Positions 1 through 17,184 of a stretch of 64,000 nt of DNA are shown here, one piece after another. How positions within the stretch are numbered: the first letter of the stretch is position 1; the number at the start of each line of letters is the position of its first letter. The stretch lies in IMG/VR virus record IMGVR_UViG_3300045988_149975. One strand, 5' to 3'. Made by a program: the position numbers and the translations under genes. Origin of the DNA: a virus. The notes beneath the pieces were generated by a model. That model was not told where the DNA came from, did no database searches, and saw only the letters and a list, made by a program, of their open reading frames with translations.

Positions 1-126
1 CTCTATGAATTACAGCTACTTTAGTTAAAGGAAAGTCATCATCCAAACATTCAGAAGTGGAAACTGTAACTTCAGATTTTTCATTATATTGGTCTAAAAT
101 ATCAACCAAATCTTTAATTTTCATCT
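1..126 (-). CDS. hypothetical protein, N-terminal fragment (gene continues past the window start)
   Basis: ATG at 124..126 reads MKIKDLVDILDQYNEKSEV... in the reverse complement and stays open to the window edge. RBS AAGGAGGAG lies 6 nt upstream. Confidence 0.4.
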
Positions 127-146
127 TATCTCCTCCTTATGTATTA

Positions 147-175
147 AGTATAGCATATAATATTTAATTTGTCAA
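147..175 (-). promoter_or_regulatory. sigma-70-like promoter for the 1..126 gene
   Basis: Minus strand TTGACA (170..175), 17-nt spacer, TATACT -10 hexamer (147..152) with a TGn extension (153..155). RBS and ATG lie about 20 nt downstream. Confidence 0.45.
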
Positions 176-408
176 TCTTTTATAAAAATAAAAATCAACA
201 AAAAGATAATGGATATAAGCCCTAAAATAAATGGTGCAATTACAAAAAGCCATCCATAAGGAAAAACGCCCAAAAGTTTTATAATACCTAAAATAATACT
301 TAATAAAGCGCAGATAAGATAAAAGAGTAAAGTTCTTTTAAAAACCTTTTCAAAGAATGTATACATACCTACTTGCACCTCTCCATTAACATCTTTATTA
401 CTATTCAC
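172..408 (-). CDS. small membrane protein (2 predicted TM helices)
   Basis: 78-aa ORF with hydrophobic stretches LLFYLICALLSIILGIIKLLGVF and FVIAPFILGLISIIFLLIFIFI. Confidence 0.4.
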   Translation of the reverse strand: MNSNKDVNGEVQVGMYTFFEKVFKRTLLFYLICALLSIILGIIKLLGVFPYGWLFVIAPFILGLISIIFLLIFIFIKD

Positions 409-410
409 TC

Positions 411-791
411 CTACTCTCCTAAATACTTTTTCCTCAAAACAGGTAAGGCAGCTTCACACTCCTCTTTTGTTTTAAATGCCATACCAGCCTCTTTTAAAGC
501 AAAATCTGACGAATAACCTTCCCAAAAAGCAACATCTACACATTTAAAATAGGCAGAAGGACGGTAATATATGTCACCTTTTCTTGGCTGCCACGGAAGT
601 TTAACAATTTTACATTCACCTTTTATTAAATCAAAGAACTGATATTCGGCGGGCAACCAGGCTCCATCACATTGGAAACACAATCCGTTTTTAAAAAATC
701 TATAAACTTTATCTGAACTATCAATCATAAATTCTTCTTCAAGTTCCACACCAAGCATTTTTGCTACATCTTGCATATAGTTTTTAGCCAT
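411..791 (-). CDS. hypothetical protein
   Basis: 126-aa ORF tightly packed with its neighbours on the same strand. Confidence 0.5.
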   Translation of the reverse strand: MAKNYMQDVAKMLGVELEEEFMIDSSDKVYRFFKNGLCFQCDGAWLPAEYQFFDLIKGECKIVKLPWQPRKGDIYYRPSAYFKCVDVAFWEGYSSDFALKEAGMAFKTKEECEAALPVLRKKYLGE

Positions 792-793
792 AA

Positions 794-955
794 TTACTCC
801 TCCACTATTTCATAATCATAATCAACACTTTCATTAAAAATCTCTTCTGCCATTTGTTCAGCTTCATAATCATCTACTTCATCATCAATTTCAAATTCTA
901 CACTCTTATGAGTTCCACCGAAAGAAGTATAAATATTTACTTTTAATTTTTTCAT
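794..955 (-). CDS. small acidic hypothetical protein (53 aa)
   Basis: Manual translation MKKLKVNIYTSFGGTHKSVEFEIDDEVDDYEAEQ...EIVEE. Fills the gap between annotated ORFs and is not in the track because it is under 60 aa. Confidence 0.3.
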   Translation of the reverse strand: MKKLKVNIYTSFGGTHKSVEFEIDDEVDDYEAEQMAEEIFNESVDYDYEIVEE

Positions 956-956
956 T

Positions 957-1193
957 CTAATCTACCTCAATCTTAAACTGTTTCATTATTTCATTTGTAA
1001 GAATGTATACATTACCAAAATTATCCCTCATCATATAATCAGTATAAGTTGTAATAACTTTCTCCTGTTTAGTATGATTAAAACTTGAAAATGCCTTTGC
1101 TTCATAGATTTTATCCTTTGTAAAGAAAGCAGAATCTACTTTACATTTAAGCGTTAAGTATTTTGTATAATAGGAAAATCTTGAAGGAATCAT
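957..1193 (-). CDS. hypothetical protein
   Basis: 78-aa ORF overlapping the next gene by 4 nt (ATGA). Confidence 0.45.
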   Translation of the reverse strand: MIPSRFSYYTKYLTLKCKVDSAFFTKDKIYEAKAFSSFNHTKQEKVITTYTDYMMRDNFGNVYILTNEIMKQFKIEVD

Positions 1194-1636
1194 AAGTTTT
1201 TCAACTCCCTTGCTGTTTCCACAATAGACTGCATTAAAGTTTGTAATCCACTTTTAGAAATTTCACCTATATAGCTTACACCTCTATCTACTAATGCACC
1301 TGTACTGTCTACTACAGCATTGATGTTGTCAGGGGTAACATAAGAAGCAATAATCATTTTATAAACAGTATCTTGGTCAGGAATAAAAATCATCCCTAAT
1401 CCGCATACTACTAACATGGAAATGCCTGTACAAATCCCTCTCCACTGCATCTTTGCAAGTTTTTCATCTGTTCTTGTTACCCATGTATCATTAGTATAAA
1501 TTTCCTTGTCTTTATCTATCATAAAAGCAAAGAATGTAATCATCATTCCAAGGCAAAATAGTAGTCCGCAAGCTGATTGAATTTTCGGCAATAAATCAAC
1601 AAAATAGAAAAGCCAAGGTGAAATAATAGGCTGCAT
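1190..1636 (-). CDS. membrane protein
   Basis: 148-aa ORF with several hydrophobic segments (LFYFVDLL, CGLLFCLGMMITFFAFMI, GISMLVVCGLGMIFI). Confidence 0.5.
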   Translation of the reverse strand: MQPIISPWLFYFVDLLPKIQSACGLLFCLGMMITFFAFMIDKDKEIYTNDTWVTRTDEKLAKMQWRGICTGISMLVVCGLGMIFIPDQDTVYKMIIASYVTPDNINAVVDSTGALVDRGVSYIGEISKSGLQTLMQSIVETARELKNL

Positions 1637-1639
1637 AAT

Positions 1640-2068
1640 TTATTCTCCTTTCAAGTCCCTTTGTAATGTTTTATAAATTTCCTCTGCTTTCTTAACTATT
1701 TCACTATTTGATAAATGTGAGGTATCTTTAAATACCAACCCCAAAGCAAGCATTAATAAATCTTTTGAATCATTATAACGAAAAGAGCCTTTACTCAATT
1801 CAATATTACCTTTAAACATTCCTGCATATACAACTATCTCACCCTCTTTAGGTTTCCAGTTAGATATTACTTCAATTTCCCCGCTTAAAATTTGTTTAAG
1901 GAAATAGGAAGTCATACTAACCCCTATATTATCTGCTTCAAAAATACCATTACTTTTTAAAACATAAGCACCAAGAGGTCTATCATGTGAAAGAACAGTA
2001 AAAGGTTTATCAAACTCTATATCAAAAGTTCTGCTGAACCACTCTAAAAAGCTACCTAAATAATTCAT
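1640..2068 (-). CDS. hypothetical protein
   Basis: 142-aa ORF. Confidence 0.5.
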   Translation of the reverse strand: MNYLGSFLEWFSRTFDIEFDKPFTVLSHDRPLGAYVLKSNGIFEADNIGVSMTSYFLKQILSGEIEVISNWKPKEGEIVVYAGMFKGNIELSKGSFRYNDSKDLLMLALGLVFKDTSHLSNSEIVKKAEEIYKTLQRDLKGE

Positions 2069-2069
2069 A

Positions 2070-2477
2070 TTAATTCTCCTTATATTTCCTCAAAGTAATA
2101 GAAGTTTTACCATCTGAAAATACATATTCATCATAATTATTAGCAGTGTTCACAGAAATTAAAGGCAAATCAAAATCAATATCTCCCTCAATACAAACAT
2201 TATATTCTGCACCTAATATAAAGGGGTAAAGTGAATCAGCAGGTTCAATCCAATCTTCCTCAATATGCTTACAGTCTTGCCCATTCTCAAATTTAACTCT
2301 GTAAACAAATCTATCATCTTCATAGGCTGTAAATACTACTTCACCTATATCTCCCTTGTTTATTAAAGAATCTTTTACAAAGGTTTTACAAATTCTTACT
2401 TTATCACCATTGTCGAATTTACTTTCTTTAACGATTCTCATTCTTAAACAACTCCTTAAAAATATAATACAGTACAT
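2070..2477 (-). CDS. hypothetical protein
   Basis: 135-aa ORF. Confidence 0.5.
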   Translation of the reverse strand: MYCIIFLRSCLRMRIVKESKFDNGDKVRICKTFVKDSLINKGDIGEVVFTAYEDDRFVYRVKFENGQDCKHIEEDWIEPADSLYPFILGAEYNVCIEGDIDFDLPLISVNTANNYDEYVFSDGKTSITLRKYKEN

Positions 2478-4443
2478 CTACTACAATACTATTACCTGCC
2501 ATTTTATAAAGCTGTGTATTACTTATTCCTTTACATACTTCAATATCCCTATCCTCAAAGCCCATAAGCCTGAAGCACTCTTTAGGAGTAAGTTTACGGA
2601 TTCTATTCTCAATTTTGTAGAGTCCTGTTTTAGCACCTAATCCACCTGCTTCACCTTTAAGAGTAACAGATAAACCGTTTACATCATACACCACCCTTTT
2701 AGCCTGTGGCATACCGCTTGTAAGTTCTGTAAGCTGTGGAACTACAACACCTGTTGCAATTCTATCATCATTTTGTAAGAAATTTGCTTGTGAAGTTTTA
2801 TAATAATTAGCTTTAATAGTTCTACAAGTACCATCCTTTTCAGTACCATAGGGCGTAACAGATTTAAAATGTTTGATGTAATCTTTAACTTTATCATCTC
2901 GCATAAAGTATCTATCCTCTACCTCATTTTCAAGCACATCCTTTAGACTTTTAGTAAGTGGAAACGGCGCAGGAAAGTTAAAACCTTTATCAATATCTTT
3001 CCTAATAGATATTATAAATACTCTTTCTCTCCTTTGAGGTATTCCATAATCTGCGGCATTTAATACCTTCCAATAATTATTATACCCCATCTCACTTAAA
3101 CAGTCAAGTATATAATTAAATTCTTTTGTAAATTTTTTACCAGTGAGATTTTTAACATTCTCACATACTGCATATTTAGGTTTGACAGCATCGATAATCC
3201 TTAAAGCGTCAAACACTAATCCGCTACGAGTTTTTTCACCATTATATTCCAACCCCATTTTCTTACCACTTACAGAAATATCTTGACAATTATGCACTAT
3301 AATGTTATTGACAGTATATGAATTATCATTTTCAACTTCAAGATTGAATACCTCGATAGGCTTTTCAATCATTTCAATAGCTTTAATAGGTACTGCTATT
3401 TTATCTCCTATAACTAATTGATGCAATGCTCTATCAGAAAACTGCGCATTATAACAATCTTTAAAACTATCTTTTTGTCTATCTTTTCTAATACTTGTTG
3501 TAGGTACTACATTATAAAGTTTAATAACAATTCTACACAACTGTAAAAACATCTGCTCATTTATAGTGCTAAACATAAAAGTTGCTCTATCTTTTCTTCT
3601 ATGCCCATCACCACTCATATAACCATCGAAGAATTTAGATAACTGTTCTTTATTTAAAGACACAACCCAATCAGGAATTTTCTTAATACCTGCTCCACTA
3701 CCACAACTATGTATTACAGATTCTAATTTATCATCTATAATTCTGAAGTCAATACACGTTCTTTTACTATGTCCTTCATTATATCTGATATTAGTTAAAT
3801 GTTTTATAAATTCCTCTTTCTTACCTGAACCAATACAAAATATGGGACGTTTCTGATAAAGTTTTTCACAATAACCGTCTGCAAAATATCTACCAAAAAG
3901 CCATAGCCTATCATCATCTAAATCTGTATAGGCAGACTCTGTATTTATATTATAGGTAATGAAATCTGTAAGTTTTAGATCTTTAGCCTTAACCCAAACA
4001 AACTCTCCATCTCTATAAACATATAAAGGATGCTCATTAGTTAAATAAAGATTATAAGCCCCTACCCCTTTAATATGTCTAATACTATTAGAAATTCTTG
4101 ACATCGTTCTTAAAACTTTTTGATAATTATTTGTATGTGTAAGTACATAATCACCTACAATTATATCTTCAATATTTTTATAACCACACTGCACTTTAAT
4201 TTTTGTTCCAGCAGGAACACATGGAAATCCATAAGTTACTAAATCTACTCCAGGAAGTTCGCCTTCATTTACTTTAGTAATATCCCAAAGGTTTAAACTT
4301 TCAGGCACGTTATGGATTAAGGAATATGCTTTACTTGCATACTTATCTACTTCACAATAGTTGACAAGGGTATAATTAATTCCCAATCTTTCAAGGGCTT
4401 TTTCAAAAGCCCCTATACCTCTAAACAAACTTAATAATTTCAT
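2428..4443 (-). CDS. DNA (cytosine-5) methyltransferase interrupted by an intein
   Basis: C5-MTase motifs in order: I (FRGIGAF), IV GFP|C...HN|CQ (PCQ split by the intein), VI VCENVKN, VIII QRRERVFII, X GNSIVV. Without the 311-aa insert the exteins form a roughly 360-aa Dcm-type enzyme. Confidence 0.85.
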   Translation of the reverse strand: MKLLSLFRGIGAFEKALERLGINYTLVNYCEVDKYASKAYSLIHNVPESLNLWDITKVNEGELPGVDLVTYGFPCVPAGTKIKVQCGYKNIEDIIVGDYVLTHTNNYQKVLRTMSRISNSIRHIKGVGAYNLYLTNEHPLYVYRDGEFVWVKAKDLKLTDFITYNINTESAYTDLDDDRLWLFGRYFADGYCEKLYQKRPIFCIGSGKKEEFIKHLTNIRYNEGHSKRTCIDFRIIDDKLESVIHSCGSGAGIKKIPDWVVSLNKEQLSKFFDGYMSGDGHRRKDRATFMFSTINEQMFLQLCRIVIKLYNVVPTTSIRKDRQKDSFKDCYNAQFSDRALHQLVIGDKIAVPIKAIEMIEKPIEVFNLEVENDNSYTVNNIIVHNCQDISVSGKKMGLEYNGEKTRSGLVFDALRIIDAVKPKYAVCENVKNLTGKKFTKEFNYILDCLSEMGYNNYWKVLNAADYGIPQRRERVFIISIRKDIDKGFNFPAPFPLTKSLKDVLENEVEDRYFMRDDKVKDYIKHFKSVTPYGTEKDGTCRTIKANYYKTSQANFLQNDDRIATGVVVPQLTELTSGMPQAKRVVYDVNGLSVTLKGEAGGLGAKTGLYKIENRIRKLTPKECFRLMGFEDRDIEVCKGISNTQLYKMAGNSIVVDVLYYIFKELFKNENR
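3289..4221 (-). mobile_element. intein with LAGLIDADG homing-endonuclease domain inside the C5-MTase
   Basis: Starts with Cys immediately after GFP (residue 75) and ends VHN followed by Cys+1 (residues 384..386). Two LAGLIDADG-like motifs (LFGRYFADGY and FFDGYMSGDG). Splicing would restore GFPCQDIS. Confidence 0.75.
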
Positions 4444-4613
4444 TCGATAACCTCAATTTCATCTACCTGAAAATCTCTAATAATGCTAATGAAATTTAAA
4501 GCGCCGCCGAAGTGGTTATAGAGTTTATCTAATACTTCTTTCTCACTGTCGGCTAATACAATATACTGTTCTAACTTTCCATCATAATAAAATAGAATTA
4601 CACCATAAGTCAT
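4440..4613 (-). CDS. small hypothetical protein (57 aa)
   Basis: Manual translation MTYGVILFYYDGKLEQYIVLADSEKEVLDKLYNHFGG... Strong RBS AAAGGAG upstream. Its stop overlaps the MTase ATG (ATGA). Confidence 0.45.
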   Translation of the reverse strand: MTYGVILFYYDGKLEQYIVLADSEKEVLDKLYNHFGGALNFISIIRDFQVDEIEVIE

Positions 4614-4795
4614 TTATTTTTCTCCTTTAAAATAATATCATAGCCTTTTACTCTTACTTCATTAATTAAATAATTTTCTACAACATCTCCGTATTTCTCA
4701 TTAATGTAATCTCTTACTTCCTTTCTGCTTTTAGCAGCATGGGTCATAATAACTTTATCACCGTAAAAATCCATCTGAACTAAATAGAGTTTCAT
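4610..4795 (-). CDS. hypothetical protein
   Basis: 61-aa ORF, translationally coupled to its neighbours. Confidence 0.45.
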   Translation of the reverse strand: MKLYLVQMDFYGDKVIMTHAAKSRKEVRDYINEKYGDVVENYLINEVRVKGYDIILKEKNK

Positions 4796-5082
4796 TATTC
4801 CTCGCCTCCAATGTTTAACTCTTCTAATGCGTTAAATAAGATGTCATCCATTATTATAAGTCCTTCTTTGAGGAAAAGGTTATCTCCAATCTGACTAAAC
4901 ATTTGTCTTATAAGGTCATAGTCATCTCTTCTGAAAAGCTCTATATCCTCATTATATAACCCATTAATGCCCATTTTAACAGGGGTACTTGCCATAATCA
5001 GATAGTCGCCATTATAGCTATCTCTTACCCAAATTCTTTCAACTTCTACAATATCCTGCTGTTTTAAAAGCTGTACTAACAT
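4795..5082 (-). CDS. hypothetical protein
   Basis: 95-aa ORF. Confidence 0.5.
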   Translation of the reverse strand: MLVQLLKQQDIVEVERIWVRDSYNGDYLIMASTPVKMGINGLYNEDIELFRRDDYDLIRQMFSQIGDNLFLKEGLIIMDDILFNALEELNIGGEE

Positions 5083-5591
5083 TTTACCTGTCCCTCCAAA
5101 ATTTCTTTATAAAAATCATATTTACCATCTTTATCAGTAGTATAACTTCTGCCTGTAAGATGTACACCATCACTTAATAAAAACTTTTTAAAGTAATCAA
5201 TCTTTTTAAGGGTTCTCTTATCAAGTTTTCTATAAACTTCATCAAAATATTTACTGCAATTAAAGTTATAAACAATAGGGATTACTTTACGATTAAACCA
5301 TCTACGCTCTAAAACGTATCTAATAAGCTGTAAACCTTGTGCAACAGCCCTTGCAGCCCTATTAACATGATTACTGTAGTCAATCACTGTAATGTGACGA
5401 CCCATGGCAAGGTTAAGCAGAAAATCATTATCCAAATCCTGAATAACCATATCCCAATTCTTTTGTTCACATTGAGTAGATTGAATACGAATAAATCTTA
5501 CACTGCCAATAGGTTTACAGATTGTTTTTTCCTCATGTAATTCCCAATCCTTTAAGTATTCAATACCATTAGTAAGATTTAAGTAAATCAT
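5076..5591 (-). CDS. hypothetical protein
   Basis: 171-aa ORF immediately downstream of a consensus promoter. Confidence 0.5.
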   Translation of the reverse strand: MIYLNLTNGIEYLKDWELHEEKTICKPIGSVRFIRIQSTQCEQKNWDMVIQDLDNDFLLNLAMGRHITVIDYSNHVNRAARAVAQGLQLIRYVLERRWFNRKVIPIVYNFNCSKYFDEVYRKLDKRTLKKIDYFKKFLLSDGVHLTGRSYTTDKDGKYDFYKEILEGQVKC

Positions 5592-5610
5592 TTTATCACC
5601 TCATTAATAA

Positions 5611-5657
5611 TGCCTTATCTTTGTACTTATTATAGCAAAGATAAGGCATCTTGTCAA
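5611..5657 (-). promoter_or_regulatory. consensus sigma-70 promoter with an operator-like inverted repeat over the -10
   Basis: Minus strand TTGACA (5652..5657), 17-nt spacer, TATAAT (5629..5634). A 13-bp inverted repeat TGCCTTATCTTTG / CAAAGATAAGGCA (5611..5623 and 5636..5648) brackets the -10. Confidence 0.5.
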
Positions 5658-5665
5658 TAGGTAAA

Positions 5666-6130
5666 TTACATATTTTTTACTACACTTACATAATATCTAA
5701 AGGCTTTTCCTGGGGGAACATCTTTATCTGTAAGCCAAAGTTTAGTATAATTTACATAATAATCCGTATTATCACCAAATAAAGGCTTTAAATCACTGTA
5801 AGCCATATTAAGAACATAATACCAATCATAACTATTAAAATGTTCTTTATTAAAATCTATACCTGCTTTTTGTGCAAGTTGAATAGACTGTTCCACAGTC
5901 CAATGTCCACCCCTTGTACCGTCAACATTTTCCATTCCCCTTACAGCTTCGTCAGCAAGCATGGGAGTAAAACATTCACCATAAATAGCAGTATAGATGG
6001 CTTTGAACAGTTTTAAAGATTCTTCTTTATGCTCTTCAAAATAATTTTTAAAAAAAGTCATCATGAGTTTTAAAGCATCAGGATTACTTTCTGCTGCTGT
6101 AATTAAAGATTTAATATCCATAATTTGCAC
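5666..6130 (-). CDS. hypothetical protein
   Basis: 154-aa ORF. Confidence 0.5.
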   Translation of the reverse strand: MQIMDIKSLITAAESNPDALKLMMTFFKNYFEEHKEESLKLFKAIYTAIYGECFTPMLADEAVRGMENVDGTRGGHWTVEQSIQLAQKAGIDFNKEHFNSYDWYYVLNMAYSDLKPLFGDNTDYYVNYTKLWLTDKDVPPGKAFRYYVSVVKNM

Positions 6131-6296
6131 TACCTTTCTTTCCTTCTAAAATATCATCAAAGAAATTCATAAAATTACTACCATAACCCTCAAAACATTC
6201 TTTATATATATCAGGGTCTATAATAGCCTTTTTGAACTTATCACACCCATAAGTATAGTTGAAATTTCTAAAGTATTTACACTCCCTGCACCGCAT
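6111..6296 (-). CDS. small Cys-rich protein
   Basis: 61 aa, reads MRCRECKYF...YGCDKF...YKECFEGYG. Confidence 0.4.
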   Translation of the reverse strand: MRCRECKYFRNFNYTYGCDKFKKAIIDPDIYKECFEGYGSNFMNFFDDILEGKKGSANYGY

Positions 6297-6480
6297 AGAA
6301 CTTTACCTCTTTTCCTGCATATAATTCAACCCAATCCTTTAACTCTACTATACAATCAAGTATATATGTTTTACCGTTTATTACAATATATACATCTTTT
6401 CCTGCCCTTAATCCAAGTAAATCATTGGATTTTAAAGTAATATCAGTATTAGAAGGTTTATAATTCATTTGTTTCTCCAT
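6277..6480 (-). CDS. hypothetical protein
   Basis: 67-aa ORF. Confidence 0.4.
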   Translation of the reverse strand: MEKQMNYKPSNTDITLKSNDLLGLRAGKDVYIVINGKTYILDCIVELKDWVELYAGKEVKFYAVQGV

Positions 6481-6628
6481 ACAAGATTACCTCACCATTA
6501 ATAAAATCTAAATCATCAATGTATGTACAAAAATTTTCATATTTACTATCAATACTAATAAAACATTCTACATTCCCTTGCTTATCTCTTACTTCAATGA
6601 GTGCATCAATAAGTTCATTTAATTTCAT
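6458..6628 (-). CDS. hypothetical protein (start moved to the internal Met)
   Basis: The track ORF 6458..6667 probably starts at MKLNELIDAL (RBS AAAGGAGAGG upstream). That ATG overlaps the stop of the upstream MTase reading frame. Confidence 0.4.
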   Translation of the reverse strand: MKLNELIDALIEVRDKQGNVECFISIDSKYENFCTYIDDLDFINGEVILYGETNEL

Positions 6629-7326
6629 TAGAAATCCTCTCCTTTGCAATGTTGAAATAATTTTCATCTTTTTCTATTCCAATAAACTTACGATTATTCT
6701 TTAAAGCTGCTACACCAGTGCTACCACTACCCATACAATTATCCAATACTACATCACCTTCACTTGTATAAGTCTTAATAAAGTATTCAAGCAATGCAAC
6801 AGGTTTTTGTGTAGGATGTAATCTACATTTATCTTTATTAAAATCTAATACATCTACTGGATAGCGTTTTCCATCATTTACCGTTACTACTGATACTTGC
6901 TCTCCATAATTACTACTACCTCTACCACTTTTGCAGGTATAAGGTTTCCCTTCTCTAAATTGTGGATGGTACGGGGGGGGAGGAATAGAATACTAAAATA
7001 TTTTCATGGTTCTTTAAAGGCATTTTCTTTGCGTTTAAATGTCCTGTTCCCTGTGGTTTACGCCATATCCACTCATACTTGAGATTTTTGATATTGCTTA
7101 CACCTAATACCTTATCAAAAGGAGTCTGTGCAAAGAGTAGGATAGCACCATTATCTTTTATAATACGATTATATTCTTTCCACATTAAGTCCAAATCTAT
7201 AACACTATCCCATTTATTCCTTGTAGTACCAAAAGGCGGATCACAAAGAATTAAATTAACACACTTATCAGGTATATCTTTCATTACCTCTAAACAATCA
7301 CCTAAATACAATTTTAGTTTATCCAT
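6615..7326 (-). pseudogene. beta-class N6-adenine/N4-cytosine DNA methyltransferase, frameshifted in a G8 homopolymer
   Basis: N-terminal frame (6955..7326) carries motif IV DPPF (ILCDPPFGTT). After the G8 tract the -1 frame encodes LHPTQKPVALLEYFIKTYTSEGDVVLDNCMGSGSTGVAALKNNRKFIGIEKDENYFNIAKERI (HPTQKP and motif I FxGxG) and ends at 6615. Removing one G, or adding two, restores a single ORF of about 236 aa. Confidence 0.7.
6973..6980. repeat. G8 homopolymer (C8 on the coding strand) at the methyltransferase frameshift point
   Basis: Direct read: acGGGGGGGGagg in roughly 30 % GC DNA. Confidence 0.9.
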
Positions 7327-7886
7327 CTAACTACAGTTTCTCCTTTAAATCCCTTTTCCCAAATAAACCAAGCATAAGCAATCGCATTGGATGGGTATTT
7401 ATCAAAATCACCATTCTTTGCGCAAGAAAGCCTACCCCTTGCAACATATACATACTTTGGTGGATTTTCTTTATAAAATTCTCCACGCTCTTTGCCTTCT
7501 AAAAATTGAAGGCGTAAAAAGAACGCTACAGAGTTACCTTTAGGAATAATATCTAATGCGTGTTTCACAAATGGAAGTGCTTGTTTGTAAGGAGGATTAG
7601 AAACAATATCTCCGCCCCATTCAGTCACATCAAAGAAATTTTGTACCTTACCATATCCTCTATCATAAAGGTCAATACTTTCTACAATATAGTTAGCTTT
7701 TTCTAACTCTTTACTGATATGCCCCTCACCACAACAACACTCTAAAATTTTCGGAGCAAATTTGTACTCTGCAAGTAGTAATTGTACTGCTTTAGGCTGT
7801 GTAGCATAGTAATCCTCTAATTGCCTTTCTTCCCTTGAATGATTACTTGCACCAAGAGTTACATATACATTATGCTTTCCGTTCAT
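7314..7886 (-). CDS. putative N6-adenine DNA methyltransferase (motif I followed by NPPY)
   Basis: ILECCCGEGHIS (motif I-like) followed by DIVSNPPYK (motif IV NPPY). 190 aa, intact. Confidence 0.6.
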   Translation of the reverse strand: MNGKHNVYVTLGASNHSREERQLEDYYATQPKAVQLLLAEYKFAPKILECCCGEGHISKELEKANYIVESIDLYDRGYGKVQNFFDVTEWGGDIVSNPPYKQALPFVKHALDIIPKGNSVAFFLRLQFLEGKERGEFYKENPPKYVYVARGRLSCAKNGDFDKYPSNAIAYAWFIWEKGFKGETVVRWIN

Positions 7887-8214
7887 ACTTAACCTCCAAT
7901 TTTACTTTAGTGCTAAATTCAGAGTCTTTCAATGCTTCAATTCTTTCTTTCAAATACTTACAGCAATTTTCCTCTGTCATTGTTTTAATAAATTCGCAGT
8001 TCTGTAACAAAACTTTCATTAAATAATCTTCAGTAGGGCAAAAATCGTACATTTTATCACTATGCGCTTTAAGCACATACCTATCGAATGTTACTGTTAA
8101 ATCAGTAATATAGCTACTTCCATAATCACAAGTGGGGCAGCCTTTAAAGGCTTCTTTATCATAATCAATGTTTACAATACCACCGTCTACTAATTTCATT
8201 AAATAATCTTTCAT
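7870..8214 (-). CDS. hypothetical protein
   Basis: 114-aa ORF with several Cys (CPTCDYG, CPTEDY). Confidence 0.45.
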   Translation of the reverse strand: MKDYLMKLVDGGIVNIDYDKEAFKGCPTCDYGSSYITDLTVTFDRYVLKAHSDKMYDFCPTEDYLMKVLLQNCEFIKTMTEENCCKYLKERIEALKDSEFSTKVKLEVKYERKA

Positions 8215-8721
8215 TTTTTAATCTCCTCAAATATAATTTGTTTTGGTAAAATATTATGACATACATATACGCTTGAAAACGGTGGATTAAGAGATGGTTT
8301 TTGTTCTCTATAATCTTTGAAGTATGCAACTCTCTTATTAAAGTACATAATTTCAAAGTCATTATCTTTGAACATATTAAATCTCTTTTGGCTTTCAAAT
8401 AATCCTACAACACCTACAAGCATTGCAAAGGGTTTACCAATCTCAAACAGCCTTTGTAATACCTCGCCCTTTAAAGAATAGGGAGGATTACTTATAATAT
8501 AATCACAATCAGGAATAGGCTCTTTAAAGAAATCTTTACCCTCATTTATATGTGAGTGTATAACCTCATTTCCCCCCCCCTAAAATCTTTACAAAATTCG
8601 ACTCTTCAGTATCAAAGGGACACCAAATTGTAGAACCAGGTTTTAGATATTTAATTAAAGGTTCAATAGCATATACAGGAGTGTAAAATTCATCATTACC
8701 GCTGCTTGCCACTTTATCCAT
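8211..8721 (-). pseudogene. phage Dam-like N6-adenine DNA methyltransferase, frameshifted in a G9 homopolymer
   Basis: N-terminal frame MDKVASSGNDEFYTPVYAIEPLIKYLKPGSTIWCPFDTEESNFVKILGGGK stops right after the tract. In the -1 frame it continues NEVIHSHINEGKDFFKEPIPDCDYIISNPPYSLKGEVLQRLFEIGKPFAMLVGV... (equal to track ORF 8211..8423). The DEFYTP N-terminus plus NPPY is typical of small phage Dam-family MTases. Removing one G gives an ORF of about 169 aa. Confidence 0.7.
8572..8580. repeat. C9 homopolymer (G9 on the coding strand) at the second methyltransferase frameshift
   Basis: Direct read: cattTCCCCCCCCCtaaaa. Confidence 0.9.
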
Positions 8722-8723
8722 TT

Positions 8724-9056
8724 TCATTCCTTATCATACCTTTCTACGTTAGGTTTATCAAAAGTTTCCCACTTATAAGCACGCCAACCAGTTATAATAG
8801 AACCGTTACTCGCTACTACATAACAAAAATCACATTGACGCATTGGTATTCTTACACACACTTTTATAATCTTATCACCACTCATTGCCATTTCAAAAAC
8901 CATATTTTTTGAAAGTTTATCCTTTTGTACAAGCGGTAATCTTTTTTGTCTTGCCCTTACCATAAAATGATGAGTAAAATTTACCCTTTCAAAGCCATCC
9001 CAAAACTTCTGCATATCTACTTTAGGCATAAATATATTTTTGTGATACAGTTTCAT
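8724..9056 (-). CDS. hypothetical protein (start moved to ATG)
   Basis: The track ORF uses a TTG start 5 codons upstream. The ATG (MKLYHKNIF...) lies 8 nt after GGAGG and just downstream of a consensus promoter. Confidence 0.45.
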   Translation of the reverse strand: MKLYHKNIFMPKVDMQKFWDGFERVNFTHHFMVRARQKRLPLVQKDKLSKNMVFEMAMSGDKIIKVCVRIPMRQCDFCYVVASNGSIITGWRAYKWETFDKPNVERYDKE

Positions 9057-9087
9057 AATAACAACCTCCAATCTTTTCTATGGTTTT

Positions 9088-9116
9088 ATTATACACTACT
9101 ATTATCACTATGTCAA
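9088..9116 (-). promoter_or_regulatory. consensus sigma-70 promoter
   Basis: Minus strand TTGACA (9111..9116), 17-nt spacer, TATAAT (9088..9093), immediately after the terminator hairpin. Confidence 0.5.
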
Positions 9117-9120
9117 TACC

Positions 9121-9154
9121 TTTTAATAAAAAAGCCGCCCAAAATCGAGCGGCT
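9121..9154 (-). terminator. rho-independent terminator
   Basis: 6-bp GC-rich stem AGCCGC/GCGGCT (9133..9138 and 9149..9154) followed on the minus strand by TTTTTTATTAAAA. Sits at the 3' end of gene 9153..9464. Confidence 0.55.
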
Positions 9155-9464
9155 ATTTAGTTAAAGTTTCTTTTACATAAATCTTATATTTAGAATTGCC
9201 ATAAGTAGAACTTTCAAATGTATTTGTTGGAATTTTAAAAACACTTTGAAAATTCTCACCAACTGATGATGTGTCTATACAAATAAAATAATCCTTGCTT
9301 ATATAGACAATAAAAGCACAAGTGAGAAAATCCTTTCCCTCATCTATTAATATTCTAACAGGGAAATTGTTACTAACATATATACAACTCATTAAAAATA
9401 ATAAGTTGCCATTATTAGGAACATATTTATCCCCATTCTCACTAATAATATATTCGGGAAACAA
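9153..9464 (-). CDS. hypothetical protein
   Basis: 103-aa ORF ending in the terminator. Confidence 0.45.
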   Translation of the reverse strand: MFPEYIISENGDKYVPNNGNLLFLMSCIYVSNNFPVRILIDEGKDFLTCAFIVYISKDYFICIDTSSVGENFQSVFKIPTNTFESSTYGNSKYKIYVKETLTK

Positions 9465-9477
9465 CTCTACTCACCTC

Positions 9478-9666
9478 TTAATCTTCATCTTCCAAATCAC
9501 TAACATTTATAAAATCAATAGTTTTAACTGTAGCAAGATTTACATATTTTAAAATATAATTATCTTCAAATACTGTTAAATCCTTGTCATTAATCGTAAA
9601 ATCTTCACGATCAGCATAAAGTTCCTCCATGTCATTATTAGCATAAGTAATTAAAATCTGTACCAT
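9478..9666 (-). CDS. small acidic hypothetical protein (62 aa)
   Basis: Internal ATG (MVQILITYANNDMEEL...) preceded by AAGGAGGAA. The longer track ORF (MVWWCCRF...) lacks an RBS and runs into the promoter leader. Confidence 0.4.
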   Translation of the reverse strand: MVQILITYANNDMEELYADREDFTINDKDLTVFEDNYILKYVNLATVKTIDFINVSDLEDED

Positions 9667-9815
9667 TATATATTCCTCCTTAATTAAAACCCATAATAAT
9701 GGTGCATAACACCAAGCGCAAAACCTACAACACCACCAAACCAAAAGTAACCATTCGTAAATACTTCTTTAACTTTATTATATAATTCCACTCTTTTCAC
9801 CTCCATTATGTGCTT

Positions 9816-9844
9816 ATTATAACATATTTTTACTGAAATGTCAA
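9816..9844 (-). promoter_or_regulatory. consensus sigma-70 promoter
   Basis: Minus strand TTGACA (9839..9844), 17-nt spacer, TATAAT (9816..9821). Confidence 0.5.
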
Positions 9845-9850
9845 GTAAAA

Positions 9851-9889
9851 TTTATTCCACACTTTGACGCATTTTTATTCCACACTTTG
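9851..9889. promoter_or_regulatory. two 16-bp direct repeats just upstream of the -35 (candidate regulator-binding sites)
   Basis: TTTATTCCACACTTTG at 9851..9866 and 9874..9889 (23-bp periodicity), 7 and 30 nt upstream of the -35 on the transcribed strand. Confidence 0.4.
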
Positions 9890-9890
9890 G

Positions 9891-10964
9891 CTATTCATTG
9901 TTTTTAAGTAAGAAATCAGGATTAATGACTTTAAAGGATATATCCTCTCTATAATTTCTTACAACAATACCTTCCCTATCTATATCATATAAAAGAGATT
10001 TACCTCTTGCTTTTTCTACAATATCATGAATAGTTGGGGGAAGTATAAAATCATTTGTAAGTACAGGAACATTGTTAAGCCCTAATTTTTTGCAGATAAA
10101 ACTTGCCTTATCTTGTTCAATGCGTAAATCATCTATAATTACATTGTAAACAAAGAAGTCATATCCTGAAACATGATATTTATTTCCTTGTATAGATTTA
10201 CCTATAATCTCACCTTGTATTACTACTTTATTAGCATTATATGTTTTAGCTATATCTTTTAAACAATCTTTTAAACCAAAACGCCTTGCCACTTCCCAAT
10301 ATGGGGAATCATCTTCTTTTCTTAACCATACATTTCTACTGCATACACCAAATTTTCCTTCATTTAAAAAATATGTAGCACTACATCCGTCTAATTTTTC
10401 AGTCATATAGAACTTAACATTGTCCTTATGCCATTTTTCATATTGATTAGGTAAATTTTGTACCCTTTCTTCATCTGTCTTATTACATATATTTACAGGA
10501 AATGAAGCATTTGTAGTTTTAAATTTCGCTAAAAGTTTTCTAAACCACCTGTATTTCATTAAAAACCGTAAAAATCTTGGGTAACTTACACTTTGTTTAA
10601 TAAGTTTTGTTTCAGCTTCAGCCTGCGGGTCATATTTAGTTATACCAAGTTCTTTTGTAACATCATCACCGATTTCATGATAACTGCCCCTTAAATAACT
10701 AATAGGTAATACCAAACCTTGTGAAATTTGCTTCCTTAATTTAATAGTTCTTACCCTGTACTTTCTATCCTTCATAAAAGCAAATTCAGGACGAGGAGGC
10801 AAAATGGAATCTACTTCTACAAAAATAACTTTATCCCCTACATTAAAATTATCAGATTTAGATACAACACATTCCCATCCCCTTACAGTAGCCTTGAGTA
10901 TTCTATCCGCATTGGGAATAGGTTCTAAACTTTCAATTCTTGCTATAGTTGCTAATTTACGCAT
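9891..10964 (-). CDS. ATP-dependent RNA ligase with N-terminal OB-fold, tRNA-binding-like domain (Rnl5/DraRnl-like)
   Basis: Nucleotidyltransferase motif I KLDG (MTEKLDGCSATYF). The N-terminal 60 aa (LATIARIESLEPIPNADRILKATV...VGDKVIFVEVDSILPP) resemble tRNA-binding OB folds. Confidence 0.55.
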   Translation of the reverse strand: MRKLATIARIESLEPIPNADRILKATVRGWECVVSKSDNFNVGDKVIFVEVDSILPPRPEFAFMKDRKYRVRTIKLRKQISQGLVLPISYLRGSYHEIGDDVTKELGITKYDPQAEAETKLIKQSVSYPRFLRFLMKYRWFRKLLAKFKTTNASFPVNICNKTDEERVQNLPNQYEKWHKDNVKFYMTEKLDGCSATYFLNEGKFGVCSRNVWLRKEDDSPYWEVARRFGLKDCLKDIAKTYNANKVVIQGEIIGKSIQGNKYHVSGYDFFVYNVIIDDLRIEQDKASFICKKLGLNNVPVLTNDFILPPTIHDIVEKARGKSLLYDIDREGIVVRNYREDISFKVINPDFLLKNNE

Positions 10965-10974
10965 TTATTATACC

Positions 10975-13868: not shown

Positions 13869-14375
13869 TTATTTGACAGGACAAGTGCTTGCTGCATTTA
13901 ATTTTACCTCCAAGTCTGTTAAGTTATCAACAGAACTATCATCTAAATAAACGTGGGCAAATACTTTTCTTGCTCTTAAATTTTCTATCCACCATTTCAT
14001 ACCGTCAGGGAACATTTCTTTTATACGCTCCAAATCATCATTAACAGCGTCAAACTCTAATCCCAACTTTTTACAATAAGAAACTGCCTCATCTAAACTC
14101 TTACCACACCTGCAAGTCCAAAGGATTAATTCGTTCCCTGCTTCTTTTAATTCTATGAGTTTTTCTATTACACATCTACCGCTTTTATCTTCTTTAAGAT
14201 AGCCAATATTCGGAAAAGCATTTTCTACGATAGTTCCATCAAAATCTACTGCTATAATCATTTTATACTCCTTATAAAATAGTGCGCCAAAAGGCGCACC
14301 ATAATTAACATTTACTATAGCCACAATTATTACAATAAGCACACTTACCATCAGGAATAAGAGTATACTCACCAC
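13869..14375 (-). CDS. HAD-superfamily hydrolase (nucleotidase-like)
   Basis: DxDxT motif IIAVDFDGTIV near the start of the soluble part, after an N-terminal hydrophobic segment. Overlaps the 3' end of the RNR gene. Confidence 0.5.
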   Translation of the reverse strand: MVSILLFLMVSVLIVIIVAIVNVNYGAPFGALFYKEYKMIIAVDFDGTIVENAFPNIGYLKEDKSGRCVIEKLIELKEAGNELILWTCRCGKSLDEAVSYCKKLGLEFDAVNDDLERIKEMFPDGMKWWIENLRARKVFAHVYLDDSSVDNLTDLEVKLNAASTCPVK

Positions 14376-17184
14376 ATTCAGGGCATTTCATTTTGCCATT
14401 ATGAATATCATCCTTTACCTCATGAATAGCTTTCTGCGTTTCCTCTGTAAGTGCTTTTTCAAAAGTATTTTTAGCATCCTCTATAGCTGTCTTATTTTCT
14501 TGCAAGTCTTTATAAATATCTCTAATTGCACTTGCAATACAAGAAGCGCAAGATTTAGAAATATCTTTTCTACCGCTACGCATTAAATAACTACAAGCAG
14601 GACAGTTAGCGTTGCTTAACTCATCAGCAATATCTAATGCTTTACCACCAAGCCTTAAAGCATAGCTTGTAAGTCTTGCAATAGTAGAAATATTAGCTTG
14701 ACAGCCTGTTTCTGCACCTACAAAAACCTCAAAAATGTGATTATCTTTTACATTTACTGTTACATAAAAATTTCTTACACAAGCTGTATGGTAAACAAAA
14801 GTGCGCCCCCAAAGGGATTTCACTCCATTACGTTTAACAGGCTCAAGATTATCTAACTGTCTTGCTTGCATATCATCTACTGTAACAGGTTCTTTAATAA
14901 TCTCAACTTTTGGCACATGATTTTTAACTTCTTTATTCTCTACATCAGCACGTTTTACACCATGGTCAGTACCAAGGATATTAATGCGTTTGCAGTTATC
15001 ACGAAAAATAGTAATACCCTTACAACCATTTGACCATGCCTGCAAATAAAGGTTAAAAATATCATCTACAGTTGCACTCTCTTTAAGATTAATAGTAGAA
15101 GAAATTGCATTATCTACATAAGACTGCATAGTAGATTGTAAATCAACCCTATCCTTGGGGTCAATATCATAAGTATCTACAATATAAGGAAACTTTTCTT
15201 TAATCTGTTCAGCAGTAAGTTCATTGGGATTATAACCTCTAAATTTTAAAAGATTTTCCACTGCAAGCATATTAATATGGAAAGATTTACCTTCTTTTTC
15301 AAGAACATGAGTAGTTCTATCATAAGACACTTGATAGTATGGTTCTACACCACCACTTTCTCTAAAGAGCATTGAAATTGAACCGGTAGGTGCAATACTC
15401 AATAAAGTGCCATTACGCATATTTTGAGATAAATCCTTTGCCACTCTTGAAGTAAATCTGTACTGAATATCATGTACCATACCACTTTTATCAAATTTTT
15501 CTTTGTCAAATTTACCAAAACTACCCTTTTCTGCCCCTAATTTTGCAGAAGTGGCATAGGCAGTAGTCTGCATATTGCGCATAATAGATGCTATAAGTTC
15601 AATACTTTTTTGACTGCCATATTTAATACCCATTGCTACAAACATATCTGCCATACCAAATATGCCTAAACCAATGCTACGCCAATCATCAATACATTTC
15701 CTATTCTTATCTAAAGGTTGAAGTTCATAACCATAATCAAGAATTTCATCTAATGCGGTTACAGCATTTTTAACTGTATCACAGAATCGCTCCATATTGA
15801 AATGCGCCGTATCAGTATAAGGATTATCTACGAAGTTATAAAGATTAATACTACCTAAATTACAAGCATTATACTCTGAACCTGCAAATTCACCACAATT
15901 CCCTGTCAAAACACCATTGGCAATGAAGGTATGATTTTTAGGCTCATTCATACAATAAACAGTATCAACTACTTCTGCTTCTTCGATAGCTACAACGCTA
16001 ATTTTAGGGCAGGCATAAGCTGTTACAATAAAATCAAGGTCATTATTAAAAACAGGATGTTTATACCAATCTAAAGTGTCACCAACTTTTAAATCTTTAG
16101 CTTCAACTCTGCCGACATCCCTCAATACCCATTTATGGTAAGGGGTACACTGAACAGTAGCACCATTAGAGAATTTAATCTTTAAAGTCTTTTGGTCATG
16201 CCCTGTTACTTTAGGAGTAACTTTGCTCCACTCATAACCATTCCAAACTTCTACCTCTTTACCTGCTAATTCCCCAATAGGTTTATACCCCTTTTTAGTA
16301 AGAATAAGGGTATCACCAGTTACACAAGGGTTTGTAGTATCAATCCTATATTCATTAATAGGATAGCCACTCAATAAGTTACATTCTCTTACATTATCAA
16401 TAAATAATGCCCCAGGCTCTCCCCAATCATACTGCGCTTCACAAAATTTCCTAAAGAAATCTCTTGCATTAATTTCTTTTTTAACCTCTTCACCATTTTC
16501 TTCATTTTTAAAGTGCAACTCAAAATTCTCATTACTAATTACACTTGTCATAAAATCATCAGTGAAACATATAGAAATGTTCGCACCCTGAATTTTATCA
16601 TTATTCTGTTTAATAGTTAAAAATTCTTCAATATCAGGATGGTCACAATTCAAGGAAATCAGAATTGCTGCCCTTCTTCCGTTATTTCCAATAACTTCAC
16701 CAATTACATTATAGACATCCATGAAGGAAACTGCACCGCTTGAAGTCTTTGCAGAATTATTAACTTTAGCACCCTTTGGGCGAAGGTTACTCAAATTAAT
16801 ACCTGCTCCACCGCCAAAGCTAAAAATTCTTGCCATTTCCTTACCTACATCAAAAATAGATTCAATGTTATCTTTAGGTGAGGGAAGAATATAACAATTA
16901 CTTGTTGTGGCTCTAAATTTTCCTTTACAACCTGCTGCATAAAGTGTTCTGCCCGCAGGTAAGAAAGTACCATCTATAATACTCTCTACCATAAAATCTT
17001 GTAATTCTTTTGTAGAAAAAATACTTGATACTCTTTTAATGAAAGCATTAAATCCTGCATCAAAACCTTCCTGTTCTACAATTTTTAACTCGTCATCGTG
17101 CATATATTTTTTCTTTATAATATTTTGCGGAATTTCATCATCCCACCATACTTTATACATATTTACATTACTAATTCTACCCAA
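14305..17184 (-). CDS. nrdJ: ribonucleotide reductase (class II NrdJ-like) interrupted by a mini-intein
   Basis: Active-site motif TTNP|C...N|CGEF, which restores NPCGE on splicing. C-terminal zinc ribbon CPECGEYTLIPDGKCAYCNNCG. 959 aa including a 143-aa insert. Confidence 0.7.
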   Translation of the reverse strand: MGRISNVNMYKVWWDDEIPQNIIKKKYMHDDELKIVEQEGFDAGFNAFIKRVSSIFSTKELQDFMVESIIDGTFLPAGRTLYAAGCKGKFRATTSNCYILPSPKDNIESIFDVGKEMARIFSFGGGAGINLSNLRPKGAKVNNSAKTSSGAVSFMDVYNVIGEVIGNNGRRAAILISLNCDHPDIEEFLTIKQNNDKIQGANISICFTDDFMTSVISNENFELHFKNEENGEEVKKEINARDFFRKFCEAQYDWGEPGALFIDNVRECNLLSGYPINEYRIDTTNPCVTGDTLILTKKGYKPIGELAGKEVEVWNGYEWSKVTPKVTGHDQKTLKIKFSNGATVQCTPYHKWVLRDVGRVEAKDLKVGDTLDWYKHPVFNNDLDFIVTAYACPKISVVAIEEAEVVDTVYCMNEPKNHTFIANGVLTGNCGEFAGSEYNACNLGSINLYNFVDNPYTDTAHFNMERFCDTVKNAVTALDEILDYGYELQPLDKNRKCIDDWRSIGLGIFGMADMFVAMGIKYGSQKSIELIASIMRNMQTTAYATSAKLGAEKGSFGKFDKEKFDKSGMVHDIQYRFTSRVAKDLSQNMRNGTLLSIAPTGSISMLFRESGGVEPYYQVSYDRTTHVLEKEGKSFHINMLAVENLLKFRGYNPNELTAEQIKEKFPYIVDTYDIDPKDRVDLQSTMQSYVDNAISSTINLKESATVDDIFNLYLQAWSNGCKGITIFRDNCKRINILGTDHGVKRADVENKEVKNHVPKVEIIKEPVTVDDMQARQLDNLEPVKRNGVKSLWGRTFVYHTACVRNFYVTVNVKDNHIFEVFVGAETGCQANISTIARLTSYALRLGGKALDIADELSNANCPACSYLMRSGRKDISKSCASCIASAIRDIYKDLQENKTAIEDAKNTFEKALTEETQKAIHEVKDDIHNGKMKCPECGEYTLIPDGKCAYCNNCGYSKC
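15898..16326 (-). mobile_element. mini-intein (no endonuclease domain) at the RNR active-site Cys
   Basis: Begins CVTGDTLIL (block A) at residue 287 and ends ...FIANGVLTGN followed by Cys+1 at residue 430. Penultimate residue is Gly, not His. 143 aa. Confidence 0.65.

Follow-up and report, generated by a model that had tools for sequence, protein, structure and literature searches.

The window studied here is a 64,000-nucleotide stretch of viral DNA (IMG/VR record IMGVR_UViG_3300045988_149975) that represents a phage genome, with genes for a family A DNA polymerase, a DnaB-like helicase, a ribonucleotide reductase (RNR), an RNA ligase, tail proteins and a tail fibre. On its minus strand lies a gene for a C5 DNA methyltransferase in which a long in-frame insert, almost certainly an intein, separates the two halves of motif IV. 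The gene and its parts are arranged as follows.

2428..4443, minus strand: precursor gene, C5 DNA methyltransferase with intein, identified from the open reading frame list, Pfam and NCBIfam; 671 amino acids (aa) plus stop, about 77.1 kDa
4222..4443, minus strand: N-extein, aa 1-74, from motif I (LFRGIGAF) to ...VTYGFP, the first half of motif IV; aligns to M.HhaI from residue 13
3289..4221, minus strand: insert, very probably a class 1 intein with an embedded LAGLIDADG homing endonuclease; 311 aa, about 36.1 kDa
3286..3288, minus strand: +1 Cys codon (TGT), encoding the predicted C-extein splice nucleophile, which is the motif IV (PCQ) cysteine of the methyltransferase
2431..3288, minus strand: C-extein, aa 386-671, with CQDIS, ENV (motif VI), QRRER (motif VIII), the target-recognition region and GNS (motif X)

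A first-pass annotation had placed an intein at 3289-4221, running from the Cys after GFP to VHN followed by C, and these coordinates proved exact. Located through GFPC and VHNC in the translation, the insert comprises residues 75-385 of the 671-aa product, that is 933 nt or 311 codons in frame, with the junctions ...VTYGFP/CVPAGTKIKV... and ...NNIIVHN/CQDISVSGK... (slashes mark the borders of the insert). Its deletion in silico yields ...TYGFPCQDISVSGK..., in which GFPCQDIS is restored, so that excision regenerates GFPCQ as had been predicted. At 29% GC, base composition alone would leave 311 consecutive codons open with a probability of about 4e-14. An exact-sequence look-up of the 671-aa precursor found no record, and megablast of window positions 1-12000 against GenBank phages matched only 95 nt, lying in an unrelated Bacillus phage methyltransferase.

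The exteins together make up a complete C5 methyltransferase. In the precursor, the PF00145 match (3.9e-66) falls into two stretches, with residues 386-667 on profile positions 71-324; the spliced 360-aa sequence gives a single match over profile positions 1-324 of 324 (242.7 bits, gathering score 22). TIGR00675 dcm matches the precursor at 1.2e-67 (228.9 bits, cut-off 100.65). With profile scores above threshold, the C5 methyltransferase motifs are present as well, including PC of motif IV and ENV of motif VI. The spliced enzyme aligns to M.HhaI with an E-value of 2.7e-53, ...DLVTYGFPCQDISVSGKK lying over ...DILCAGFPCQAFSISGKQ, and the +1 Cys of the insert pairs with the Cys of GFPCQAFS. The Cys of the M.HhaI GFPCQ motif is well established as the catalytic nucleophile Cys81. 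From the alignment it follows that the splice nucleophile and the motif IV cysteine of the methyltransferase are the same residue. As 311 residues split Pro and Cys of this motif, the 77-kDa precursor is expected to be catalytically dead.

Within the insert, the motifs for protein splicing are found at the following positions.

4183..4221, minus strand: block A (CVPAGTKIKVQCG), with Cys1 as predicted N-terminal nucleophile; C1 and G5 invariant in alignments
4018..4062, minus strand: block B (GAYNLYLTNEHPLYV), with Thr61 and His64 of the TxxH motif (T61-N-E-H64); T61, H64 and P65 invariant
3310..3351, minus strand: block F (VFNLEVENDNSYTV); V291, N293, E295, D299, N300, S301 and Y302 invariant
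3289..3309, minus strand: block G (NNIIVHN), with penultimate His310 and terminal Asn311

A search for blocks A, B, F and G, proposed with the initial annotation, hence recovered all four, and they are invariant across relatives. Over 12-24 relatives at 30-58% identity, the invariant positions are Cys1, T61/H64, D115, K180, D205, block F, H310/N311 and the +1 Cys. In Pfam, the insert alone scores 45.8 bits for Intein_splicing (gathering score 35.8) and 29.9 for Hint_2 (gathering score 28.4); the whole precursor scores 18.8 for TIGR01443 intein_Cterm, with a cut-off of 15.6. Block F is without Cys and Cys1 is present, which assigns the intein to class 1; a class 3 intein, which would take its nucleophile from a Cys inside block F alongside a Trp-Cys-Thr triplet and as a rule make no use of residue 1, was rejected on these grounds, Cys1 being moreover invariant. 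A group I intron with an endonuclease reading frame was likewise rejected, since no Rfam intron match at E <= 1 was found in window positions 2300-4700 and the frame is continuous across both junctions. The intein is likely to be splicing-competent.

Between the splicing blocks, a homing endonuclease of the LAGLIDADG type had been predicted by the first-pass annotation, and the features listed here bear it out.

3502..3930, minus strand: predicted homing-endonuclease domain, about intein aa 98-240, the limits being approximate and taken from the secondary structure of the model
3868..3906, minus strand: LAGLIDADG motif 1 (LWLFGRYFADGYC; LWLFGRYFADGY), with Asp115; G110, R111, D115 and G116 invariant
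3601..3642, minus strand: LAGLIDADG motif 2 (LSKFFDGYMSGDGH; FFDGYMSGDGH), with Asp205; G200, Y201, D205 and G206 invariant

Both motifs keep their catalytic Asp. An alignment-based AlphaFold2 model of the intein (mean pLDDT 93.5, pTM 0.91) has helices at 103-115, 191-205 and 222-236 with strands between them, and its predicted fold is a HINT domain with a LAGLIDADG domain of alpha-beta-beta-alpha-beta-beta-alpha topology. In a Foldseek comparison with the PDB, the best match was the TliVMA intein 7qsu (E 9.7e-18, query-normalised TM 0.77), followed by PI-SceI, PhoVMA, PI-PfuI and PI-PkoII and then by free LAGLIDADG enzymes and mini-inteins. The free enzymes I-Tsp061I, I-DmoI, I-WcaI, I-AniI and I-SceI were matched with E-values of 3e-6 to 6e-4; matches extend to the endonuclease domains of PI-SceI and PI-PfuI, and the model also matches the hedgehog HINT domain. 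These matches of the predicted fold decide the LAGLIDADG assignment where Pfam by itself did not.

HINT domains also occur outside inteins, and the insert could be read as a bacterial intein-like (BIL) or PT-HINT autoprocessing domain. Domains of this sort occupy variable, non-conserved positions and have neither a canonical +1 nucleophile or extein ligation nor a homing endonuclease. The top sequence-only match in the PDB is indeed the BIL domain of C. thermocellum (2lwy, E 2.9e-5), and five weakly matching proteins (P0031-P0035) carry PT-HINT domains at the C-terminal end of unrelated proteins. However, PT-HINT scores only 26.8 bits on the insert, below its gathering score of 27.7, and the +1 Cys, the terminal HN, the internal endonuclease and a conserved-motif site for which empty alleles exist are features of an intein. 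We therefore rejected this reading, to which we give very little credence.

We consider it very probable that the element is a class 1 intein with a single-chain, two-motif LAGLIDADG endonuclease, seated between Pro74 and the motif IV Cys (GFP/CQ) of an M.HhaI-like phage enzyme. Its empty alleles lend it further support. When the spliced sequence was used for searching, intein-less proteins (P0036-P0039) were found at 97%, 95%, 89% and 89% amino-acid identity. The contigs of the first three (L004, L005 and L006) are syntenic with the window, with the same small genes on both sides, and in all three the 933-nt intein is missing as a clean indel. With blastn, L004 positions 1-1277 correspond to window positions 5495-4219 at 96.2% identity and L004 positions 1275-3370 to window positions 3288-1190 at 91.1%. 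L004 is without the 933-nt intein only; it reads GGCTTCCCC/TGTCAAGAT (CCC/TGTCAA) at the junction and GGCTTCCCC/TGTCAAGATATT over the motif IV region around the insertion point. The closest intein-less alleles share about 94-96% DNA identity with the window gene. The suggestion to look for intein-free alleles in relatives thus led to closely related phages that differ by a precise 933-nt indel. Such sporadic presence among near-identical host genes is as expected of a mobile intein.

These alleles also bear on the view that the insert is an ordinary domain, kept in the mature methyltransferase and never spliced out. Near-identical genes function without the insert, which breaks the invariant PC dipeptide of motif IV; every splicing residue is conserved, and the predicted fold matches solved inteins from end to end. 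A retained domain is hence barely conceivable.

A second copy of the intein, at 98% amino-acid identity, resides in L092 (IMG/VR UViG_3300045988_142217), a 91-kb contig. Between the window and L092, DNA identity is 98.3% in the intein and 94.6% in the exteins (Fisher p 8e-6), and the synonymous divergence (dS) is 0.045 in the intein and 0.27 in the N-extein; the dS of the C-extein is inflated by a one-codon indel and was left out. For the intein, the ratio of nonsynonymous to synonymous divergence (dN/dS) comes to 0.24, and its endonuclease part alone gives 0.23; no more than 16 differences, 8 of them synonymous and 8 nonsynonymous, underlie these figures. Together, these values are consistent with purifying selection and with a spread of the intein more recent than the divergence of the host genes. 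Across 14 relatives, intein and extein identity mostly co-vary without strong incongruence, so that frequent transfer of the intein from one methyltransferase subfamily to another is not clearly indicated.

Several observations weigh against this picture of an intact mobile intein in an intact host gene. Other segments of the window and L092 genomes are also 98-99% identical, and the excess similarity of the inteins could be due to ordinary mosaic recombination. A clean co-conversion signature was not found: flanking synonymous codons fail to split intein-plus from intein-minus alleles, and within about 150 nt of the junction identity dips in all three intein-less alleles, in a stretch that corresponds to a variable loop of the enzyme. 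The Pfam profile LAGLIDADG_3 reaches 17.2 bits on the insert, under its gathering score of 22.5, and the endonuclease assignment therefore rests on the motifs and the predicted fold. In L092, the second LAGLIDADG motif carries D205G, where the window copy keeps Asp205. The homing endonuclease of L092 is probably inactive, and to judge from this substitution endonuclease decay is under way in the lineage. As regards the methyltransferase, codon 8 in motif I (4420..4422, minus strand) gives LFRGIGAF in the window and LFSGIGAF in four of four close relatives (L092, L004, L005 and L006); an Arg at this position, in the AdoMet-binding FxGxG motif, is unusual.

The intein might therefore still splice with its endonuclease already inactive, as a post-fixation element on its way to a mini-intein that is inherited vertically and no longer mobile. 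We hold this to be possible, with a substantial though minor share of the probability. The low LAGLIDADG_3 score and the D205G substitution in the sister copy would agree with it, as would the existence of mini-inteins or decayed copies at the same site (P0027-P0030; P0016, with motifs lost) and the RNR intein of the same phage, which is already a mini-intein. On the other hand, the window copy retains Lys180 and the two catalytic Asp residues, all three of them invariant in relatives, dN/dS across the endonuclease region is as low as 0.23, and intein-less targets persist in the lineage, so that selection for homing can still act. On balance, we lean slightly toward an endonuclease that is still active in the window.

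Alternatively, the whole locus might be decaying, the gene being a pseudogene for a dead precursor with either a non-splicing intein or an inactive methyltransferase. The Arg-for-Ser exchange in motif I, seen in the window only, would fit this, as would the frameshift at a poly-C tract in the neighbouring gene for an N6/N4 methyltransferase. Decay is also seen elsewhere, namely in the broken C-extein of phage 587AP2, the +1 Tyr of P0016 and the +1 Ser of L157. However, the 671-codon frame is wholly open, the motifs of intein and methyltransferase are intact save for the one position in motif I, and low dN/dS speaks for purifying selection; we thus regard a dead locus as improbable.

The neighbouring N6/N4 DNA methyltransferase gene lies at about 6615..7326 (minus strand), and its frame is shifted at a C8 homopolymer at about 6966..6973 (TTCCTCCCCCCCCGTACC). 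An intact 237-aa homologue in L005 reads TTCCTGCCCCCCCCCGTACC and is 2 nt longer than the window sequence. The frameshift could be a sequencing or assembly error, mark a pseudogene or reflect slipped-strand phase variation. As for the specificity of the C5 enzyme, its alignment to M.HhaI reaches part of the variable region, query residues 271-352 lying on HhaI residues 239-316 with GGLGAKTG over GGIFAKTG. It is speculative that the spliced enzyme may methylate a GCGC-like site.

For a splicing-competent class 1 intein at this site, the reaction would begin with an N-to-S acyl shift at Cys1, aided by Thr61 and His64 of block B. The thioester would then be handed to the +1 Cys, the methyltransferase's own motif IV cysteine. 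Cyclisation of Asn311, assisted by His310, would free the 36-kDa intein, and an S-to-N shift would create the native GFP-CQDIS bond in an active 41-kDa enzyme, with the junction peptide GFPCQDISVSGK. In a co-infection of related phages, the free intein could then act as a homing endonuclease and cut the intein-less motif IV coding sequence (about ...TATGGCTTCCCC/TGTCAAGATATTTCT...), and recombinational repair of the cut allele would copy the intein in.

We may also speculate on a regulatory role, in which phage DNA methylation would be switched on after translation by splicing itself. Before splicing, Cys1 and the motif IV +1 Cys might be joined in a reversible disulfide or might coordinate a metal, and the methyltransferase would become active only when redox or ionic conditions permit it, or only some time into the infection. 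If so, retention of the intein at this cysteine in phages, bacteria and archaea would point to a host benefit and not only to selfish persistence. The observations made here lend no support to such a switch, and we think it quite unlikely.

A catalytic-site intein in a methyltransferase had been thought an uncommon case when the locus was first annotated. This was not borne out: at least 100 loci, and several GenBank phages besides, have related inteins at the same Pro/Cys site. For the locus scans, a site was counted when it showed the strict junction plus ENV. By this measure, at least 68 of the best 80 loci in IMG/VR have the intein at the same site, and 3 more have it with truncated or broken C-exteins. 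In GTDB genomes, no relatives were confirmed when the intein sequence alone served as query; with an alignment in its place, the scan gave 32 same-site cases out of 72 complete loci, the holders including many Lachnospiraceae, Neisseria, Campylobacterota, Paenibacillus, cyanobacteria and two archaea. All of these 100 same-site loci have Cys at position 1; in 99 the insert closes with HN, and in 91 it is followed by CQ. A large protein collection contributed 35 matches, nearly all of which combine PF00145 and intein domains at the same site.

With tblastn against GenBank phages, full-length relatives of the intein were found within genes labelled DNA (cytosine) methyltransferase. Their junctions, which place each of them at the same site, read as follows.

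Lactobacillus phage Nyseid gp072: GFP/C...VHN/CQDIS; 43.9% identity over all 311 residues
Escherichia jumbo phage ph0011 (Asteriusvirus): GGFP/C...VHN/CQAWS
Propionibacterium phage B22 gp50: GGSP/C.../CQDLS
P1-like Escherichia phage RCS47 Dmt: GGTP/C.../CQAFS
Mannheimia phage 587AP2: GGTP/C...VHN/CQS; C-extein broken
Pseudomonas phage Lana: SPD/C.../CTHFS

None of the records for Nyseid, B22, RCS47 and ph0011 has an intein annotation, and many GenBank phage records of the same architecture carry no intein label. Deviating junctions were seen in L157, with a +1 Ser (...VVHN/SQGFS), and in P0016, with a +1 Tyr and degenerate LAGLIDADG motifs. Both look like decaying loci, and any spliced product would be without the methyltransferase nucleophile.

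In the literature, a 2025 preprint on actinobacteriophage inteins lists the C-5 methylase (IPR001525) among the hosts (bioRxiv 10.1101/2025.01.02.630785). Kelley et al. 2016 (PMC5050341) and Gosselin et al. 2023 (PMC9957025) describe N6/N4 methylase inteins only, at another site, and methylases are unmentioned in the main text of Novikova 2015. Our literature search found no paper devoted to inteins in motif IV of C5 methyltransferases; apparent matches on CASP14, a B. thuringiensis phage, the jumbo-phage review, Pectobacterium phage CB7 and Azotobacter proved irrelevant. Common in the data, the site has received little description in print; in gut-phage metagenomes, it ranks among the more heavily populated intein sites, yet papers barely mention it. 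As its same-site relatives are frequent in public sequences of phages and bacteria, the element of the window counts as an ordinary representative of a kind of intein already known.

These relatives share with it the xxP/C...HN/CQ site, blocks A, B, F and G and both LAGLIDADG motifs, at a median length of about 340 aa. They differ in sequence, the nearest apart from L092 being just 55-58% identical to the window intein, and in the host subfamily, which varies between GFPC, YSFPC, GGSPC and GGTPC; some are mini-inteins or decayed. Solved inteins, that is TliVMA/PhoVMA (7qsu, 7qst), PI-SceI (1vde, 1lws), PI-PfuI (1dq3) and PI-PkoII (2cw7), have the same two-domain architecture of HINT and LAGLIDADG and the same chemistry of Cys1, His-Asn and +1 Cys, with Foldseek E-values from 1e-17 to 1e-11 and query-normalised TM values of 0.57-0.77. 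However, their sequence identity is only 12-16% and their host proteins are others (V-ATPase, RNR, DNA polymerase). PI-SceI chains have about 430-450 residues, compared with 311 here, and from this length difference alone the window intein probably is without the extra DNA-recognition region of PI-SceI.

The DNA-methylase inteins of actinobacteriophages are likewise LAGLIDADG inteins in phage orphan methylases with a patchy distribution. Their well-described cases, in contrast, sit in N6/N4 methylases (PF01555) at another site and end in Lys-Asn, e.g. in phage Doug with ...VVKN/CPLQFD. RNR inteins at NPCGE follow the same logic as the window intein, being inserted just before a host catalytic Cys that serves as +1 splice nucleophile, in a different host enzyme. 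The present case illustrates two known rules of intein biology: insertion takes place at the best-conserved catalytic codons in enzymes that act on nucleic acids, and the catalytic Cys of the host is used as +1 splice nucleophile.

For annotation, the 671-aa product is best described as the precursor of an intein-containing C5 methyltransferase, with an M.HhaI-like mature enzyme of 360 aa. The locus further offers alleles with and without the intein, about 96% identical in DNA, as a natural pair for homing experiments. We regard these results as modestly useful; they will not surprise specialists, and they open no long-standing question.

Other genes of this phage lineage show traces of inteins as well. 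A second intein lies at 15898..16326 (minus strand) within the reading frame for the RNR large subunit (14305..17184, minus strand); it is a mini-intein of 143 aa without endonuclease, with the junctions TTNP/CVTGDTL...VLTGN/CGEFAG at the NPCGE catalytic-Cys site and a Pfam Intein_splicing score of 35.1 bits, slightly below the gathering score of 35.8. The related contig L005 encodes a 1144-aa RNR with LAGLIDADG_3, and the RNR intein of the window appears to have lost its endonuclease. Outside the window, RtcB has 701 aa in L005 (18299..20404) and 387 aa in the related contig L004 (8808..9971), a size difference that suggests a third intein site in the phage lineage.

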